64,000 nt of DNA from Enterobacteria phage phiC600P9. The notes below the pieces were generated by a model. The model was not told where the DNA came from. It was given only the letters and a program-made list of their open reading frames with translations, and did not search any database. Positions 24,756 through 33,019 of the stretch are shown here, piece by piece (positions within the stretch are counted from its first letter, which is position 1; every line of letters starts with the position of its first letter). The stretch is from the sequence record MZ681930.1. The stretch is one strand, 5' to 3'. A program made the position numbers and the translations under genes.

Positions 24756-26807
24756 TTATCCTTGAACGAACTTGTAAGGCATGTTTGCAATATCTATGCA
24801 AGACGCAATAATTCCAAGAGATGATTCTACTTTCTGTTTAACATTTGATGAAACAAATGATGCAAAGTCAACTCTATCTTCTATATCACCTGTCATTGTA
24901 ACCAATTCACCAGTTTCCATTAAATGGTCTCCGTCATAGATTACCGATTCGGTGAGCTCTTCCGTGGTCATAACTTCAGCTTGAATAAGCTTGTTGTTAG
25001 TTTTAACTGTTCCATCATTGTAAGATGCATCGGTTATTTTATTAACTTTGACCATTAATCCACGTGGCAAAATGACTTCCATTTCATTTGAAGGCGCTAA
25101 ACTTCCACCGGGTAAAACAACATTGACCTTATCAGCCCCAGTAATAACCCATCCAATTCCAACTAAATTATCGCTAGAATTTACTAGTCCTTCATCAGTT
25201 TTATCAATAGAAACACTTAGACGCTTTTCGTCTGGTAAAACACCTATAGATGAATCAGTCATCCAAGTACCAAAAATATTTGGATATAATGATGTTGACA
25301 CAAAGTTTCTAAAATAAAAAACTCGATTTTTTACCAATGCTTCATATATTGAAGGTAACATTCGCTGTGAACGATATAAAGTAATACCTTTTGGCAATCG
25401 ATCGCCATTTTTAAAGGCTGAATCTAAATTATCGATGGCTTGTTCTATTTCGGGTGCTGTCAAAATACTTGTACGCTCATCTGGATTATATAATCCCAAA
25501 AGAGCATTATTCATGTCTACATATCCTGAACCCACATATTCACGAATTCCGCGTTTTTGAGCCGGTGTGTATTTAGATGAATCTTTATTTTCGACTATAG
25601 AATGCAATGACCATCCAACGGTAAGAGCATATCCACGTAATTCTCTTCGAATAATCTTTGTTTTTATTGCATTCCAAGAATTTTGCACTAACTCATTTGC
25701 AGCATCTTGATTTAAATGCGAATGCTTGTTAATATTTCTTTCTAACCAAGCACTTTTATATTTTTCTAAAGTATCATCGACTATAGAAGCAATAGTTTCT
25801 AAAGTTTTTATTGAAGTAATAGATTCTTTTCGTAATCTTTCTAAAGCTTTATTTTTTATTTCTGCATTAACATCAGATTCTTTATCTTCAGGAATTATAG
25901 AAGCTTCTCTGAATGCCATCCCAGCTGTAACACTATTAAGAGCATTCTCTAGTGCAAATCCTGAAGTAGAAATTACCGTTAATTCATTAGAATCAGAAAT
26001 TAAAGGCGCGTCCGCTGGTTTATTTAATTCTGCCGCTGAAGCCTCAAATTTTTGAAACATCGGTGTTTCAAATCTAGAAGATTCCAATGACTGACTTTGT
26101 GCAATTGCTCTACGGGAAATTTTAACTTTAACGATTACAGCTTGGTCAGAACGTTTATCGTTTTCTTGCGCAATAGATGCTGCAATTGCCTCATTTTTAG
26201 TTACTTGAGCTCCAGTATCTTTATTGATATAAACATCACCGACCTTCGATTCAACTTTAGTAAAGAGCTCGGTACTAATTTCCGGAACTCCTGGAATGTC
26301 TTCTAGTGATACATTTTTGCGATGTATAAGAATATATGCATACTTTTTATCATAATCCCAGAGTTCCTTAAGAAGGACGTATCTGCCACCTGAACGACTA
26401 CGGATAAGTCTATCAGCAATAACTTGAATTTGTCGAGCTTGACCAGCGGTTTTAGACTTAAGAATACGAAGCATGCAGGCATCAATTTTATACTGGCGCA
26501 TTGTTTGCATTGCAACAGTAAAAACTGAATTGATATAATTAATTGGGCTTGGACCAAGACCTTTCAATTTAGCAATTGAACCTTTAGCAGTTAATGTAAA
26601 AGGAACAATGTGCATCATTTTATCGCCCATCTTTAAATCACGATTAGTATCACCTCCAGATGTATAGGTACATAAACGAAAGCCTGGTTGTTCAATTGCG
26701 TCATCAACATGAACTGAAAAAATTTGTGGTATTTTCTTCTTTGGATTTAAGTTTGTAATCGGAAGAGTAGTATCTTCGTCAAATAATTCTGTAATTAGTT
26801 CCATCAT
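24756..26807 (-). CDS. alt: Alt ADP-ribosyltransferase (virion-packaged, modifies host RNA polymerase)
   Basis: 683-aa ORF (682 from the second Met) beginning MELITELFDEDTTLPITNL, with ART motifs LYRSQ, FVSTSL, NEMEVILPRG; matches T4 Alt as recalled. Confidence 0.88.
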   Translation of the reverse strand: MMELITELFDEDTTLPITNLNPKKKIPQIFSVHVDDAIEQPGFRLCTYTSGGDTNRDLKMGDKMMHIVPFTLTAKGSIAKLKGLGPSPINYINSVFTVAMQTMRQYKIDACMLRILKSKTAGQARQIQVIADRLIRSRSGGRYVLLKELWDYDKKYAYILIHRKNVSLEDIPGVPEISTELFTKVESKVGDVYINKDTGAQVTKNEAIAASIAQENDKRSDQAVIVKVKISRRAIAQSQSLESSRFETPMFQKFEASAAELNKPADAPLISDSNELTVISTSGFALENALNSVTAGMAFREASIIPEDKESDVNAEIKNKALERLRKESITSIKTLETIASIVDDTLEKYKSAWLERNINKHSHLNQDAANELVQNSWNAIKTKIIRRELRGYALTVGWSLHSIVENKDSSKYTPAQKRGIREYVGSGYVDMNNALLGLYNPDERTSILTAPEIEQAIDNLDSAFKNGDRLPKGITLYRSQRMLPSIYEALVKNRVFYFRNFVSTSLYPNIFGTWMTDSSIGVLPDEKRLSVSIDKTDEGLVNSSDNLVGIGWVITGADKVNVVLPGGSLAPSNEMEVILPRGLMVKVNKITDASYNDGTVKTNNKLIQAEVMTTEELTESVIYDGDHLMETGELVTMTGDIEDRVDFASFVSSNVKQKVESSLGIIASCIDIANMPYKFVQG

Positions 26808-26856: not shown

Positions 26857-27045
26857 TTAATAATCTATAGGTAAGAGAGTACGATATATTTCAAACTTTG
26901 GACCTTTTTCATAAGCATCAAATGTTTCTGTAAATTTATTATAAGCGTATGCATCTACAAATTCGAGAATGACTTGTGATACAGAAGTAGAAACATCTCC
27001 ACCTTCTTTTTGAGCCACGACAATTGTTTCTAAGTAAGCTTTCAT
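26857..27045 (-). CDS. Hypothetical small protein between gene 30 and alt
   Basis: 62-aa ORF whose start overlaps the gene 30 stop. Confidence 0.5.
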   Translation of the reverse strand: MKAYLETIVVAQKEGGDVSTSVSQVILEFVDAYAYNKFTETFDAYEKGPKFEIYRTLLPIDY

Positions 27046-28505
27046 AGACCAGTTACCTCATGAAAATCGCCAAATACATCTTCGAACGTATTAGCTTTAG
27101 TTTTATCTTCACGTAAACGAATCGCAATCGGAAGAAATAATTTAACGTAATCAGTGCGGCCATCAGATTTTAACCAACCATTGCATTCGCACTCTAGAAT
27201 TTTTCCAATATAATAATTTTGGTTTTCCATAATGCGAGTACGGTCAAGTTCATGCGATTTTACACCGGCTTTATCTTTTAAGCCTGAACCAGCATTTACC
27301 TTAATTTTTCCACACTCTGACTCAAGAATAAATCCACCTGCTTTAGTAGGGTCTTTACGGTGAGGATAAATTCCTACAATTTTTAAATCAACATCAATTA
27401 CTTCTTTAAATTTATAGAGATTTTTTGAACGAGCATTTTCCCATAATCCATCGATATTTTTGAGAATAATACCTTCAAGACCTTGGTCAATATACTTTTT
27501 ATAAATTACCTTAGCTTCATCTAGGTTATTTACTACCTGGTTTTCAATTAAAATTACTTTATCATATCCTGATGTCATTTGTTCTAGTTTAGAAAAACGT
27601 ACATCATATTTTAAACGAAACGCCGGAAGACCGTATATTTCTACCAACGGGACATAATCCCAGACCTGAAACTTCATACATTGAGCTTCTTTTTCAGAAA
27701 TGGTTCCTTTTAAGGATTTATTGGCGATTCCATTAGAAGTAGTACGAGATTCCGCTACTTCGGCGAATTCTTTAGCTTTACTAATTTCAGGATAAGCATC
27801 AAAAAGAAAATCTAGTCCTTCTGGTTCCTTTTTAACTTGCTCATGGTATACCAATTCGCCATCAATTAACACACCTTCTGGATGAATCTGGCGGGCTTCA
27901 GCAGTCATTTTGATTAATTCTTCCTTAAGAAGATCTAATCCTAGATATTCATTACCAGCTCGTGATAAAAGACGAACATCATCTAATTCATCACCTCGGA
28001 CTTCAGCAAAACACCGAGCTCCATCTGCTTTTAACTGTGCAAAAGCTGGAAACTTGATATTCTTACTAATGCCTTTTTCATCATAAGAACTTGCCAGCAT
28101 TTGAGGTTGTTCAGGAATTAAACCTGGCCAAACTTTGTTTGCAATAGATACTGAAGCACCGCATTCAAGGTCTCGCATCATAACTCGACGCAAAACTTCA
28201 ACATCATCCTTTTTACCATCGGTGATATATCCAGTCAATTCCTCAATTGCAGCATTTCCAGTCAATTTCCGAGTAGCTAACGTGAATTCAATGAAGTCAA
28301 GCATATCGGTAATGGTCAGCATTCCAAAACTCTGGGTAGCAATACCAGGTTTAGGCCATTTCTTGATATAATACTGCAACCCACGAGAATAAGTCAGACG
28401 ATATACTCGTTTAAGCAATTCATTATCTTTATTCTTTTCAAGAATTGCTTGCTTCTGCTTAGTTGAACCAATAGATGCTATTTCATTCAGAATTTTAAGA
28501 ATCAT
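27042..28505 (-). CDS. 30: ATP-dependent DNA ligase gp30
   Basis: 487-aa ORF with the adenylation motif KADGAR, matching the T4 DNA ligase length. Confidence 0.95.
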   Translation of the reverse strand: MILKILNEIASIGSTKQKQAILEKNKDNELLKRVYRLTYSRGLQYYIKKWPKPGIATQSFGMLTITDMLDFIEFTLATRKLTGNAAIEELTGYITDGKKDDVEVLRRVMMRDLECGASVSIANKVWPGLIPEQPQMLASSYDEKGISKNIKFPAFAQLKADGARCFAEVRGDELDDVRLLSRAGNEYLGLDLLKEELIKMTAEARQIHPEGVLIDGELVYHEQVKKEPEGLDFLFDAYPEISKAKEFAEVAESRTTSNGIANKSLKGTISEKEAQCMKFQVWDYVPLVEIYGLPAFRLKYDVRFSKLEQMTSGYDKVILIENQVVNNLDEAKVIYKKYIDQGLEGIILKNIDGLWENARSKNLYKFKEVIDVDLKIVGIYPHRKDPTKAGGFILESECGKIKVNAGSGLKDKAGVKSHELDRTRIMENQNYYIGKILECECNGWLKSDGRTDYVKLFLPIAIRLREDKTKANTFEDVFGDFHEVTGL

Positions 28506-28771
28506 TATTCATCCTTCAGAGTTTGGTTTACAGCTCTATTATAAATCAATTCATCATTAAGCTCAGGCAAAGACTTATGATATGTAGTTCTAACTTTATT
28601 TCCTTGCATCCAGTGCTTGACGTAAATGAAACCTTGCTCTACACATTTTTTAAAAATTCGTTCGTCTTTTTGAGCTCGGAATTCTGGATTGCATCTAAAA
28701 AATTGATTTACGTGACCGTAATCACGTGTAGTATTACCTTCATTTTCATAAATAGTGTGAACGACAAACAT
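28505..28771 (-). CDS. Hypothetical early protein (30.1-like)
   Basis: 88-aa ORF translationally coupled to gene 30. Confidence 0.6.
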   Translation of the reverse strand: MFVVHTIYENEGNTTRDYGHVNQFFRCNPEFRAQKDERIFKKCVEQGFIYVKHWMQGNKVRTTYHKSLPELNDELIYNRAVNQTLKDE

Positions 28772-29634
28772 TAGAATGCTCCTTGGAAAATATTATCACC
28801 ACTAGTAAATCTATTAAAATACCCTGCATCGCCAGGCTTGGTATAACTCCACGTATGGAATGGATTCATATGATACGGGTGTGTATAATATGGATTATAT
28901 GGATGTGTATAATATGGATTATACGGATTAAATCCAGGAGTTCTCCAGGTAGTGTTCCAACGAAAAGAATCGTTTTTAACCATCTTCTCAATTACATCTT
29001 TTATAGCTTTTTCACTATCAAAACTTTCTTTATTTTCCTTTGGTGAAAAAAGCTTATTTTCTACATCATTCCATGTATAAACTCGCTGCGCAGTTTTTGG
29101 AATATTGTCACGCTCTCCTCGAGCCATCCAATAAACCGGAACATTTAATATTTCACTCGCGTGGTCACAGTGGTGAGCGAGATCGTCAATATAACAAATT
29201 ACGTTATATTTCTCTTTTGCCTTTTTAAACAACTCTTCTTTTGAAGAATCATGGCCACACATCATTACTTCTGAGAAGGCACCAGGAAAAAGAGCATTCA
29301 AATTAAATTGACGATTCAACAGAGCGTCAATAGAATCACCCAATGCTGTAACAGCTACAAAATTATAATCTTCTTTTAATTTGTTAATTACACACAGGGC
29401 ATCTTTATACGGAGACAAGTAACGAATAAAATCTGAACGATTGTATTTTTCAATTAACTTGACGCCAAGTTCTTCATCACAATTAAAGAGTTTACCTGGA
29501 GAAATAAATTTCTCATCTTGGATCATTTTTAAAATATGTTCTAACGGAAGATTATATTTCTGAGCAAAATAAGGAAGGCCTGATTGCCAGCTTAAACATA
29601 CTCCATCAATATCAGTTAAAATAGTAGGCTTCAT
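28771..29634 (-). CDS. Hypothetical protein (30.2-like) with N-terminal DxDG motif and C-terminal Y/P-rich tandem repeat
   Basis: 287-aa ORF; N-terminus MKPTILTDIDGV resembles a HAD-type phosphatase motif I; C-terminus has NPYNPYYTHPYNPYYTHPYHMNPF. Confidence 0.6.
   Translation of the reverse strand: MKPTILTDIDGVCLSWQSGLPYFAQKYNLPLEHILKMIQDEKFISPGKLFNCDEELGVKLIEKYNRSDFIRYLSPYKDALCVINKLKEDYNFVAVTALGDSIDALLNRQFNLNALFPGAFSEVMMCGHDSSKEELFKKAKEKYNVICYIDDLAHHCDHASEILNVPVYWMARGERDNIPKTAQRVYTWNDVENKLFSPKENKESFDSEKAIKDVIEKMVKNDSFRWNTTWRTPGFNPYNPYYTHPYNPYYTHPYHMNPFHTWSYTKPGDAGYFNRFTSGDNIFQGAF
28878..28925. repeat. 24-bp direct tandem repeat x2 inside the 30.2-like ORF
   Basis: gggtgtgtataatatggattatat followed by ggatgtgtataatatggattatac. 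Confidence 0.8.
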
Positions 29635-30095
29635 AGAGAGTCTCTTAATAGGTTTAACACATCAATAAATTCAGCTTCGGTTAGTATTGTATCATCTTTT
29701 GTTAGACCACTAGCCATGCTGTGCTTCAAAACTTTTCCTTTCGAGGCTTGTAATGCATCGCGAAAACCCTTGTTTTGGAACGCTGCTTCAAAATATGCAT
29801 TTGTGTATAATTCTTTCCACGCCGGGGAATATCTTGAAAACGGAACTCCAAGCCAGAAGAGGGTCCCACGGTCCTGAGCTCTAGCATAAGACCTTCCAGC
29901 TTGTTGAGCGGCAAGCCCAGATAACCCAAATATACGACGTTGTTGTTCAACGTTTTTCACCTTGCATCCTTGGAGGAATCCTTCAAGACCTCCAAATTGA
30001 ATACCATCCATAACGAAAGGCCATTGGGCGAAATTACTTAATGCACATGATGGCCACCTAAAATTGCTTCTAATCTCTAACTCAGACATTTTCAA
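29631..30095 (-). CDS. NADAR (YbiA/DUF1768)-like protein (30.3-like)
   Basis: 154-aa ORF; N-terminal pattern FRWPSCALSNFAQWPFVMDGIQFGGLEGFLQGCK fits the NADAR signature as I recall it. Assignment by motif reading only. Confidence 0.5.
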   Translation of the reverse strand: MKMSELEIRSNFRWPSCALSNFAQWPFVMDGIQFGGLEGFLQGCKVKNVEQQRRIFGLSGLAAQQAGRSYARAQDRGTLFWLGVPFSRYSPAWKELYTNAYFEAAFQNKGFRDALQASKGKVLKHSMASGLTKDDTILTEAEFIDVLNLLRDSL

Positions 30096-30288
30096 TGCTT
30101 ATAATTTCAACATCAGCCCAATGACCATAGCAAGGAAGACGAAATTCAACTGGCCAGTTAGGGTCCTTTTCTAATATAATAGACTCAACTCGTGGTTCTT
30201 CATGTTCATCAGTATATGGATTTTTATCTGTTACTTTATATGTGACCTTAATGTACTGAATTCCAAAAATCTTATTAATTATATTCAT
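30082..30288 (-). CDS. Hypothetical small early protein (30.x cluster)
   Basis: 68-aa ORF in a tightly packed co-directional array. Confidence 0.5.
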   Translation of the reverse strand: MNIINKIFGIQYIKVTYKVTDKNPYTDEHEEPRVESIILEKDPNWPVEFRLPCYGHWADVEIISIENV

Positions 30289-30482
30289 ACTAATTCCTTT
30301 AATCCGTAGATAGGAGATAATTCATCACCCATACGAAGGTCTTCATTTCCATCTACCCAGGAAACAATATAAGCCTCTTTTATTTGAATACCACTCCATT
30401 TAAATGGAGGTAGAACCTTAGAAATTAATCCAGGTATACCAACTCCCTTTAATTCAACAGTTTGACCTAAAAAGAATTTCAT
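30285..30482 (-). CDS. Hypothetical small early protein (30.x cluster)
   Basis: 65-aa ORF with overlapping start and stop with its neighbours. Confidence 0.5.
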   Translation of the reverse strand: MKFFLGQTVELKGVGIPGLISKVLPPFKWSGIQIKEAYIVSWVDGNEDLRMGDELSPIYGLKELV

Positions 30483-30769
30483 TAGAACCTCATCTGAAAA
30501 CCGTGCGATTTAACATTACCGCCACCAATATCAGAGATATTAATTTCGCGCGCAATTGAAGGGTCAATGTCAATTTCACGATTGAGTTTAGTGATAGCTA
30601 AAGTATCGCGCCCATTTACAGTACGGAACTCTAAAGGGCAGACTACATTAACATAGTTTTTAATCGATTCACTAGTAGGCTGCAAATGAGCAGGAAGGTC
30701 TTTAGGCGCCTTAGAGAAAACAACTTCACAGAAATTTTTGCGGGTATCAAAATAAGTAGTCATAAACAT
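30482..30769 (-). CDS. Hypothetical small early protein (30.x cluster)
   Basis: 95-aa ORF; a GC hairpin (aggggc-cgaa-gcccct) lies just upstream at 30785-30802. Confidence 0.55.
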   Translation of the reverse strand: MFMTTYFDTRKNFCEVVFSKAPKDLPAHLQPTSESIKNYVNVVCPLEFRTVNGRDTLAITKLNREIDIDPSIAREINISDIGGGNVKSHGFQMRF

Positions 30770-30809
30770 AATATTTTCCTCAATAGGGGCCGAAGCCCCT
30801 CATTTTATT

Positions 30810-31175
30810 TTAAATATCAAATTCGTTAAGAACTACATCAAAGATCGCTTCAAGATGCTCAGGTTTAGCTCTGTTACTCAGAATATGACGAATCCAAGTT
30901 TTAACTAAGAGTTTACGATTAGCACCATTCCAGCAAGGATGAGTCCCTAAATCGCGTTGACGGAAATCATCATCTAATGCGATTTTAAAAGAAGAACCTT
31001 CTTTCGTGATTGAAACCGTGATGCCATTTTCAAATCGCATATAAACGTAGTTAGGAGTCATATACTGTTCAATTTCGCATACTGATCCATTTTGATGTTT
31101 CCAAAGGCAGATAGTATCAATAGAACCTGCAATACCGTTAGAAACATATTTACGTTCAAAGTTAATGTAGTTCAT
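30810..31175 (-). CDS. Hypothetical early protein (30.x cluster)
   Basis: 121-aa ORF. Confidence 0.55.
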   Translation of the reverse strand: MNYINFERKYVSNGIAGSIDTICLWKHQNGSVCEIEQYMTPNYVYMRFENGITVSITKEGSSFKIALDDDFRQRDLGTHPCWNGANRKLLVKTWIRHILSNRAKPEHLEAIFDVVLNEFDI

Positions 31176-31243
31176 TTTTATTCTCCGAGATGTTTAATTG
31201 CGGTACAGGTATATAATATCATATCCTGTACCAAAGTAAACAA

Positions 31244-31576
31244 TTATTTTACTACTTTCCAGTGCTGCATGTCAAGTTTACCAACTTTTTTCATCTTCTC
31301 AATTAAGCGTTCGGCACGTTGGCGAGCTGTAACATAATACCATTCACCCAACTCATTTTGTTCAATTTTTCCAACGATTACCGTATTCAGTTCATAAATC
31401 CAACCAGTAAAGAAATTATGAACTTGGATTGTAAAGGTGAAATCTGTTCCCATACCTTCTGTTGTTTCTACTTCAATAATATCACCTTCAACTGCCATTA
31501 AGAACCACATAGTTTCATCATATTTACCATTGAAGCATTTAGTTTTAACTGTGGCGTTCAGATTAATCGTTTTCAT
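31244..31576 (-). CDS. Hypothetical early protein (30.x cluster)
   Basis: 110-aa ORF. Confidence 0.55.
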   Translation of the reverse strand: MKTINLNATVKTKCFNGKYDETMWFLMAVEGDIIEVETTEGMGTDFTFTIQVHNFFTGWIYELNTVIVGKIEQNELGEWYYVTARQRAERLIEKMKKVGKLDMQHWKVVK

Positions 31577-31686
31577 TTTATTCTCCTTTGTTTGTGTAAG
31601 ATAATACTATCACAAAGGAACCATACTGTAAACAACTTTGTGCAATCTTTGGAAAATAAAAAAGGACTCCCGAAGGAGTCCTTAAC

Positions 31687-31863
31687 TTATGCTTTCTGCT
31701 TACCAAAACGAGAAGCATCATCTCGAAGAACCGCACGTGCTCGGCGCATGATCTTCTCAACAGTTTGATTGATACGAGAGTTCGACCCACGCTTGTAACC
31801 AGCGCGTTTAGAATCACCAACTTTCTTTTCAACTGCTTTCTTTGCTTTAGCTTGTTTTGCCAT
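31687..31863 (-). CDS. Small basic hypothetical protein (30.9-like)
   Basis: Lys/Arg-rich ORF MAKQAKAKKAVEKKVGDSKRAGYKRGS...; I prefer the internal ATG at 31863 over the ORF-track start at 31905. Confidence 0.5.
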   Translation of the reverse strand: MAKQAKAKKAVEKKVGDSKRAGYKRGSNSRINQTVEKIMRRARAVLRDDASRFGKQKA

Positions 31864-32261
31864 TATAAATTCTCTTTTAAATGAAAATGCAGGACTTATT
31901 GGCATTGCCTGCGCAAGCCCTCACGGGGAACATAGGTTTTTGAATATTTAACGACCAGGATAACCATAAACCCGTCATCATACCTTATAGCTCTTATCTG
32001 TTGCACACCGTTAGCTTAAAGGTTCCGGGTTCGATTTCTCGAGGATAAGATATATACTGATGGATATATAGGCCTTGAGGCGTACTCCCGATTGGCCATC
32101 ACCTCGGGGTAGCATGCACTTGCCGCTATAAGAATAACATTCAAGAGGTACACCGTAAAACTGCCGGGGTCTTAAAACTATAATGATTCGCAAATCATTA
32201 ATCAGACAGTTCGACGGCTCCTCGATTTTAGCTCACACTAAGGCAGTGAATCTCCAATAAA

Positions 32262-32510
32262 TTACTTCAGTGTTACCACAAAGTGACGAACTGCTTTTCG
32301 TGCAGCAGAAGCCAGAGGCTTAGCATATTTAAGTTCATCTTTTTCCTGGAGCTCAGCAGCTAATGCAGTTTGAGCAGGATTCAGATGTTTGAAATAACGC
32401 AGGATTTCAAGAGCTTCGGCTTCAACATCAATAGATGCGCCATAGTTTTCGTGACCATTATTCCATGCGTTTCGTTGCAGTTCAAGAGCGTGTTGTAATT
32501 GTTTAATCAT
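32262..32510 (-). CDS. rIII: rIII lysis-inhibition accessory protein
   Basis: 82-aa ORF, same length as T4 RIII, directly downstream of gene 31 as in T4. Confidence 0.8.
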   Translation of the reverse strand: MIKQLQHALELQRNAWNNGHENYGASIDVEAEALEILRYFKHLNPAQTALAAELQEKDELKYAKPLASAARKAVRHFVVTLK

Positions 32511-32657
32511 TTAAAAATTCTCGTTAGAGATTAAAACTCGGTAGTCACGTTCTTCTGAATTTCATCTTCTTTCGACAGATCTCTCAGTTGTAGACTACCA
32601 CGTAGAATTGTTCGGTTAACTTATTATTCCGACACCCAATTCATATTATTATTTATA

Positions 32658-32993
32658 TCACTTATAAAGACACGGAATAGCTTTATAGTGACAGGTAACG
32701 AATTTTTGTTTAATTTCTTTTGGCTGCTTAAGACCCAGAGCTACAAAAGGATGCGGAACGTTTCGAATTTGACCAACTGGAAGAGAAGTCAAATCACCAA
32801 CTTCGCAGAAACCTTCAGGAACATCAGGACCAACAGAGTGAACTACACACAGTTCAGGAACTTCACCTTGAACACGTTTACCGATAATGAGTCCTGATTC
32901 TGTAACTTCTTCATCACCAGCTTGCGCAGGTTCAGAAACTAAAATAACATATTCACCGACAGCACGAATTGGTAGCTGTTGTACTTCAGACAT
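32658..32993 (-). CDS. 31: gp31 co-chaperonin (GroES-like, needed for gp23 folding)
   Basis: 111-aa ORF, same length as T4 gp31. Confidence 0.9.
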
Positions 32994-33019
32994 CGTTTTT
33001 CCTTTTTGTTAACAGATGA

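Follow-up and report, generated by a model that had tools for sequence, protein, structure and literature searches.

An intact T4-type adfN gene (30.3) in Enterobacteria phage phiC600P9 encodes a minimal NADAR-fold protein that very probably counters DarTG1

What is encoded by the minus-strand open reading frame (ORF) at 29631-30095 of Enterobacteria phage phiC600P9, and does its product serve in ADP-ribosylation or in counter-defence, as had been proposed from an N-terminal motif resembling the NADAR (YbiA/DUF1768) family and from the neighbouring genes? In this study, we analysed a stretch of 64,000 nt of the phage sequence (record MZ681930.1), referred to here as the window, and all positions are those of the window. 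We conclude with high confidence that the ORF is adfN (30.3) of a T4-like phage, coding for a minimal single-domain NADAR-fold ADP-ribosylglycohydrolase that counters the DarTG1 defence. The biology of adfN is already published and is not new.

The ORF is unbroken and ends at 29631, with a TGA stop codon at 29631-29633 in the ORF listing. The automatic call, which takes the first ATG, GTG or TTG after a stop codon, starts at a TTG at 30095 and gives 154 aa. An in-frame ATG is present at 30087-30089, two codons 3′ of this TTG, and gene 30.3 as annotated in T4 (459 nt, 152 aa) is the ATG-initiated version. Since the T4 gene length corresponds to this ATG, adfN is best placed at 29631-30089. The ORF originally proposed is thus real, with its start set 6 nt too far upstream, and the two additional codons probably do not contribute to the AdfN protein. 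We infer from the overlap ATGTCTGA that 30.4 and adfN are translationally coupled. The features of the locus are:

29631..30089, minus strand: coding sequence of adfN, gene 30.3 in T4 (152 codons and the stop codon); NADAR-fold protein, very probably a guanine-ADP-ribose DNA glycohydrolase
30090..30095, minus strand: two extra codons, TTG AAA (sequence ATTGAAAATGTCTGA), within the coordinates first proposed; T4 starts at the ATG
30082..30089, minus strand: ATGTCTGA overlap between the adfN start codon and the stop codon that ends 30.4, the gene upstream; read from the sequence
29631..29634, minus strand: ATGA overlap of the adfN stop codon with the start codon of the downstream gene 30.2, read from the sequence

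The encoded protein aligns end to end with T4 gp30.3 and is identical to it at 150 of 152 residues. The two differences are I104F and I125M; Met125 is the family consensus at that column in an alignment of 62 homologs. At the DNA level, adfN differs from its T4 counterpart at 12 nucleotides, and the fact that nine of these are synonymous third-position changes is a signature of purifying selection on the adfN frame. The surrounding 1.6 kb (29000-30600) matches the genome of phiC600P9, a Tequatrovirus, at 100% identity, and its identity to several hundred genomes of Tequatrovirus phages is 95-99%. The protein matches Pfam PF08010 (Phage_30_3) over the whole profile (positions 1-138 of 138; E=9e-70; 233 bits, cutoff 36) and, in PHROGs, phrog_652 (E=1.4e-51), which is labelled function unknown. 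Taking the PF08010 match together with the identity to T4 and the predominance of synonymous changes, the ORF is far beyond chance. The allele with I104F and I125M would be expected, given this similarity, to behave like T4 AdfN.

A second gene, 30.3′ ('internal translation in a different reading frame'), is annotated in T4 in the +1 frame within adfN and corresponds to 29726-29953 on the minus strand here. The T4 ATG of 30.3′ is ACG in phiC600P9, and the next codon, a TTG, is the sole start left. Compared with T4, nine nucleotides differ within this stretch; they alter eight amino acids in 30.3′ and two in adfN, which argues that no purifying selection acts on the 30.3′ frame. On this substitution pattern, 30.3′ was rejected as a constrained coding frame, and with it this other way of reading the locus; in this phage, 30.3′ probably does not encode a functional protein.

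The assignment to the NADAR fold is carried by family-level profiles and by the predicted fold, because the phiC600P9 protein alone was not matched by the NADAR model, by PDB sequences or by NCBIfam. In a Pfam scan of the single protein, PF08010 was the sole match and the NADAR model PF08719 was not matched at E≤1; a single-sequence phmmer search against the PDB recovered no NADAR chain, giving a chance match (E=0.83) to an unrelated ATP pyrophosphatase; and an NCBIfam search found no family matching gp30.3 or gp30.2. We collected 104 homologs and aligned the 62 that were full-length (35-87% identity). When these 62 family members were scanned singly, 22 matched PF08719, the best with E=1.5e-7. 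A profile of the 62-member alignment searched against all PDB sequences placed Escherichia coli YbiA (2B3W) at the top (E=0.006); the alignment spans the ALSNFAQWPFVMDGIQFGGLEGFLQGCK stretch and YbiA residues 29-82, with the pattern SNFa..f..DG....sE.F.Q..K. The predicted model has the NADAR alpha+beta fold, a helical core flanked by two small beta-hairpins, and matched NADAR structures only. The original prediction had named a search with the Pfam NADAR model and a structural comparison with YbiA as checks, and a missing profile match combined with an unrelated fold as grounds for abandoning it. The profile match was missing for the single protein and present in part of its family, and the fold is NADAR-like; the NADAR/YbiA-like identity is therefore upheld.

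The residues expected of such an enzyme are intact in phiC600P9, as is the C-terminus:

29961..30044, minus strand: N-terminal NADAR core motif ALSNFAQWPFVMDGIQFGGLEGFLQGCK, residues 16-43; exact match plus YbiA profile alignment
29982..29984, minus strand: codon GAA of catalytic Glu36, invariant in the 62 homologs
29961..29963, minus strand: codon AAG of catalytic Lys43, conserved in at least 90% of the 62 homologs
29721..29723, minus strand: codon CAC of His123, the phage-NADAR signature residue, invariant in the 62 homologs
29634..29678, minus strand: C-terminal alpha-helix, residues 138-152, intact here; helix 138-151 in the model, at high confidence

The motif on which the original prediction was built had been quoted exactly. 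Ser18, Asn19, Phe20, Glu36, Gly37, Phe38 and Gln40 are invariant in the 62 homologs, and the family profile aligns Glu36 and Lys43 with the E..Q..K motif of YbiA. In T4 AdfN, the substitution E36A abolished DarTG1 counter-defence and K43A abolished activity (PMC11257639). The C-terminal helix is lost from the RB69 allele, in which a frameshift shortens the protein by 15 residues, and this allele is non-functional (PMC11257639). His123 directly follows the last strand (residues 120-122) in the predicted model; at this position, phage NADARs have His, YbiA-type proteins Glu and DarG1-type proteins Asp (PMC11543638, PMC11125620). The last-strand Glu that defines YbiA is thus replaced by His in all 62 gp30.3 homologs. 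Together with a neighbourhood that contains no riboflavin genes and a demonstrated phenotype that is specific to DarTG1, this makes it extremely improbable, to a degree close to negligible, that the protein has a housekeeping role as a YbiA-type N-glycosidase with intermediates of the riboflavin pathway as substrates.

The function of the T4 protein has been described in some depth. NADARs reverse the guanine ADP-ribosylation made by DarT1 (Schuller et al., 2023, PMC11543638), and earlier bioinformatic work, as cited in that paper, already listed gp30.3 among the phage NADARs. In vitro, recombinant T4 gp30.3 hydrolyses guanosine-ADPr and not thymidine-ADPr (Toxins 2024, PMC11125620), and cytidine-ADPr is left intact by the T4 enzyme (PMC12945103). 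The DarTG1 resistance of T-even phages was mapped to 30.3, which was renamed adfN (Johannesman et al., PMC11257639; Nat Commun 2025, PMC11825919): deletion of adfN made T4 and T2 about 4 logs more sensitive to DarTG1, ectopic AdfN rescued RB69, and purified AdfN took ADP-ribose off DarT1-modified DNA (PMC11257639, PMC11825919). A bacterial two-hybrid assay of AdfN with DarT1 was negative, indicating that the toxin is not bound (Johannesman et al., PMC11257639). In a HIDEN-SEQ transposon screen, insertions in 30.3/adfN were lost specifically on DarTG1 hosts, the gene being dispensable on K-12 and essential only when DarTG1 is present (bioRxiv 10.1101/2025.11.20.689424). Enzyme activity, guanine specificity, and necessity and sufficiency against DarTG1 are accordingly established in the literature for a protein 99% identical to the one studied here, and the reversal of DarT-type guanine ADP-ribosylation as a counter-defence, which the original prediction had put forward, has been demonstrated for that T4 AdfN (PMC11825919, PMC11125620, bioRxiv 10.1101/2025.11.20.689424).

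On this basis, the following course of events may be proposed for phiC600P9. AdfN would be made during infection. In a host with the DarTG1 toxin-antitoxin defence, DarT1 would put ADP-ribose on guanine of the phage DNA, blocking replication; AdfN would hydrolyse the N-glycosidic bond between guanine and ADP-ribose, with Glu36, Lys43 and the phage-specific His123 placed around the ribose; and unmodified DNA would be restored, allowing the phage to replicate. As the target is a DNA lesion and not the toxin, AdfN is in its behaviour an orphan mimic of a type-IV antitoxin.

Other substrates have been considered for enzymes of this kind. Iyer et al. (2022, PMC9503650) proposed that the NADAR and Macro domains of phages generally degrade soluble ADP-ribose-derived immune signals or toxins (e.g. 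cADPR variants) from host NAD-dependent defences, as opposed to macromolecular adducts, and a NUDIX gene lies near one distant homolog of gp30.3. However, the direct genetics and biochemistry point to de-ADP-ribosylation of guanine in DNA, and the cited AdfN and NADAR literature reports no activity on a soluble signal, so we regard such a function as highly improbable for AdfN. A role in addition to DNA repair, and compatible with it, would be the removal of ADP-ribose from guanosine-modified RNA, countering RNA-targeting ADP-ribosyltransferase (ART) toxins. The T4 enzyme does act on G-ADPr RNA in vitro, less efficiently than the E. coli C7 NADAR (PMC11833690; PMC12945103), and other DNA- or RNA-ADP-ribosylating defences have been speculated on by the authors of PMC11825919; nevertheless, the support is in vitro only and the cited literature shows no guanine-specific RNA-ART defence that restricts T-even phages, which leaves this extension unlikely.

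Even for the repair of guanine in DNA, the simple picture of a free-standing hydrolase is incomplete, because T4 gp30.3 did not rescue uninfected cells of E. coli from DarT1 (PMC11125620) and T4 AdfN rescued non-T-even phages only weakly (PMC11257639, PMC11825919). The restriction of AdfN activity to T-even phages has been ascribed to a further phage factor (PMC11825919), and a T-even-specific factor or DNA feature is implicated. Such a factor might be encoded in the gene string of adfN itself, with gp30.4 or gp30.2 localising or potentiating the hydrolase on replicating DNA. The case for these two proteins as partners consists of adjacency only, and distant homologs are without such neighbours; we therefore consider it very unlikely that either is the factor.

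The downstream gene of the two was examined further:

28771-29634, minus strand: gene 30.2, 287 aa versus 278 aa in T4, 94% identity overall

A 24-nt tandem duplication in 30.2 (repeat at 28873-28928) provides a second YTHPYNPY unit in the Pro/Tyr-rich C-terminal tail, a segment that varies far more than the other parts of gp30.2. The N-terminus, MKPTILTDIDGV, resembles motif I of HAD phosphatases (DxDGV), and weak PHROG matches to a polynucleotide kinase (E=0.0012) and a 'phosphoheptose isomerase' (E=0.008) are consistent with a putative HAD fold. Searches of Pfam and NCBIfam gave no match for gp30.2, phmmer against the PDB returned noise only, the single-sequence AF2 model (pLDDT 37.5) had no usable fold, and a full-text literature search for 'gp30.2' found no papers.

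The region from 27 to 32 kb is a closely packed leftward (minus-strand) gene string, and the gene order here and further downstream is that of T4: 30.7, 30.6, 30.5, 30.4, 30.3, 30.2, 30.1, ligase gene 30, alt.1 and alt. The position of adfN, between 30.4 and 30.2 and upstream of the ligase gene, is orthologous to that in T4. The genes that bear on the context argument are:

27042-28505: ligase gene 30, match to PF01068 (ATP-dependent DNA ligase domain); T4 annotation likewise ATP-dependent
24756-26807, minus strand: Alt, 683 aa, 98% identical to T4 Alt, PF03496
22695-24752, minus strand: Alt paralog, 685 aa, full-length, 42% identical to the other Alt, PF03496

It had been argued that a NAD-using ligase and two Alt ADP-ribosyltransferases nearby point to a role in ADP-ribosylation or counter-defence. 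The Alt pair is real, both genes being full-length with PF03496, whereas the ligase is ATP-dependent by its PF01068 match and the T4 annotation, and the linkage to Alt is no part of the demonstrated mechanism. The argument also does not generalise, since the loci of two distant homologs (P0038 and P0081) have no ligase, ART or 30.2-like neighbours; BLASTP of the genes downstream of these homologs against gp30.2 was non-significant. The distant homologs lie on phage-like contigs of up to 308-424 kb, among small unknown ORFs and without T4-like synteny, and their neighbours include NUDIX, Thg1-like, GGDEF and SprT-like genes (L002 9115-9879 (-) and 10308-11294 (-); L005 3819-4316 (+)). T4 has one alt and, where phiC600P9 has its second copy, the short remnants alt.-1 and alt.-2; the second paralog of phiC600P9 is therefore the intact version of a duplication that has decayed in T4.

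Two intact Alt-type genes within the same leftward block, about 3-7 kb from adfN, raise the question of whether AdfN serves mainly to control or undo the ADP-ribosylation that the phage itself carries out (through the Alt paralogs and ModA/ModB), by removing ADP-ribose from host proteins or RNAylated proteins. T4-like NADAR genes are indeed expressed early along with ARTs (Iyer et al., PMC9503650). Nevertheless, every NADAR tested, the T4 enzyme included, acts on guanine-linked ADP-ribose, and activity on protein arginine-ADP-ribose is not described in the cited NADAR substrate literature. Given also that adfN can be dispensed with on K-12 and that the distant gp30.3 homologs have no ART neighbour, we find this proposal hardly credible. 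The guanine-specific biochemistry, the essentiality conditional on DarTG1 and the His-for-Glu substitution together disfavour it, the soluble-signal function and the riboflavin function, and we retain counter-defence against DarTG1 as the function of AdfN.

A possible start of the transcription unit was found upstream of the string 30.7-30.6-30.5-30.4-adfN-30.2-30.1-ligase:

31246..31275, minus strand: candidate sigma-70 (T4 early-type) promoter TTGACA-18-TAAAAT, the best-scoring site, 11/12 consensus match

Shuffled sequences contain at least as many such sites as the region does, which makes this one no more than a lead. At 31662-31683 on the minus strand, just downstream of a 30.9-like ORF and upstream of 30.8, there is a strong terminator-like hairpin, AAGGACTCCTTCGGGAGTCCTT, with a T-run after it. 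The hairpin and the candidate promoter may delimit the transcription unit that holds adfN. An Rfam scan of 27000-33000 found no RNA family.

Homologs of gp30.3 are encoded in 1510 of 50,697 GenBank phage records, and the hosts of these phages include Escherichia, Klebsiella, Aeromonas, Acinetobacter and Vibrio. Among the matches listed, almost all are annotated as 'hypothetical protein', one as 'swarming motility YbiA-like protein' and one as 'GP30.3 family protein', and the Pfam description of PF08010 makes no mention of NADAR. The published function of AdfN, whose G-ADPr hydrolase activity was reported in vitro in 2024 and whose standing as an anti-DarTG1 factor was established in 2024-2025, is thus not propagated into annotation. 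The practical value of our finding lies in this annotation gap; scientifically, it adds nothing new.

With Glu36, Lys43, His123 and the full C-terminus intact, phiC600P9 is predicted to be resistant to hosts carrying DarTG1, which is relevant to the choice of therapeutic T4-like phages. Shortened gp30.3 relatives of 83-126 aa occur, for example, in phages SV76, NR1, UGJNEcP4 and RPN226, and other relatives have extra Pfam matches from neighbouring T4 genes: PF06919 (gp30.7), PF06019 and PF11097 (the shortened or extra-domain relatives are P0007, P0016, P0017, P0056, P0014, P0015 and P0096). These sequences suggest that in some T4-like phages adfN has recurrently been inactivated or fused through frameshifts or deletions, and, by analogy with RB69, phages with a shortened or fused adfN are predicted to be sensitive to DarTG1.

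Among known systems, T4 AdfN is the orthologue of the phiC600P9 protein, sharing its position between 30.4 and 30.2, its length, Glu36, Lys43, His123 and the C-terminal helix, and differing in the two residues named above. The DarG1 NADARs (E. coli C7; Geobacter lovleyi, PDB 8BAT) have an N-terminal extension that AdfN lacks, AdfN being a core domain only, of 152 aa compared with 219 aa for the DarG1-type 8BAT, and they have a catalytic Asp where AdfN has His. DarG1 adjoins DarT1, whereas adfN has no DarT-like neighbour, and DarG1 neutralises DarT1 in uninfected cells, which T4 AdfN cannot do. AdfN works like DarG1 but stands outside the DarG1 clade. E. coli YbiA (2B3W; NADAR/DUF1768, PF08719), tied to housekeeping and riboflavin roles (PMC11825919), is about 18-20% identical to AdfN, has Glu at the last strand and, unlike the T4 enzyme, also removes C-ADPr (PMC12945103). 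The NADAR of Phytophthora nicotianae (PDB 8BAU, ADP-ribose complex) is eukaryotic, longer (189 aa) and 19% identical to AdfN, and its third catalytic position is Glu where AdfN has His (PMC11543638).

Within phages, AdfN belongs with NADAR-Bas32, NADAR-Bas60, AdfM (the T4 tk.4 macrodomain) and AdfA (gp61.2) among the proteins that counter DarTG defence. The NADARs of Bas32 and Bas60 use the same chemistry as AdfN; they come from other NADAR clades and are active in uninfected cells too. AdfM has a macrodomain fold, was assigned an anti-DarTG2 role on genetic grounds and because its structure resembles DarG, and has been proposed to remove ADP-ribose enzymatically, as AdfN does (bioRxiv 10.1101/2025.11.20.689424). 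AdfA, by contrast, binds DarT1, whereas AdfN repairs DNA.
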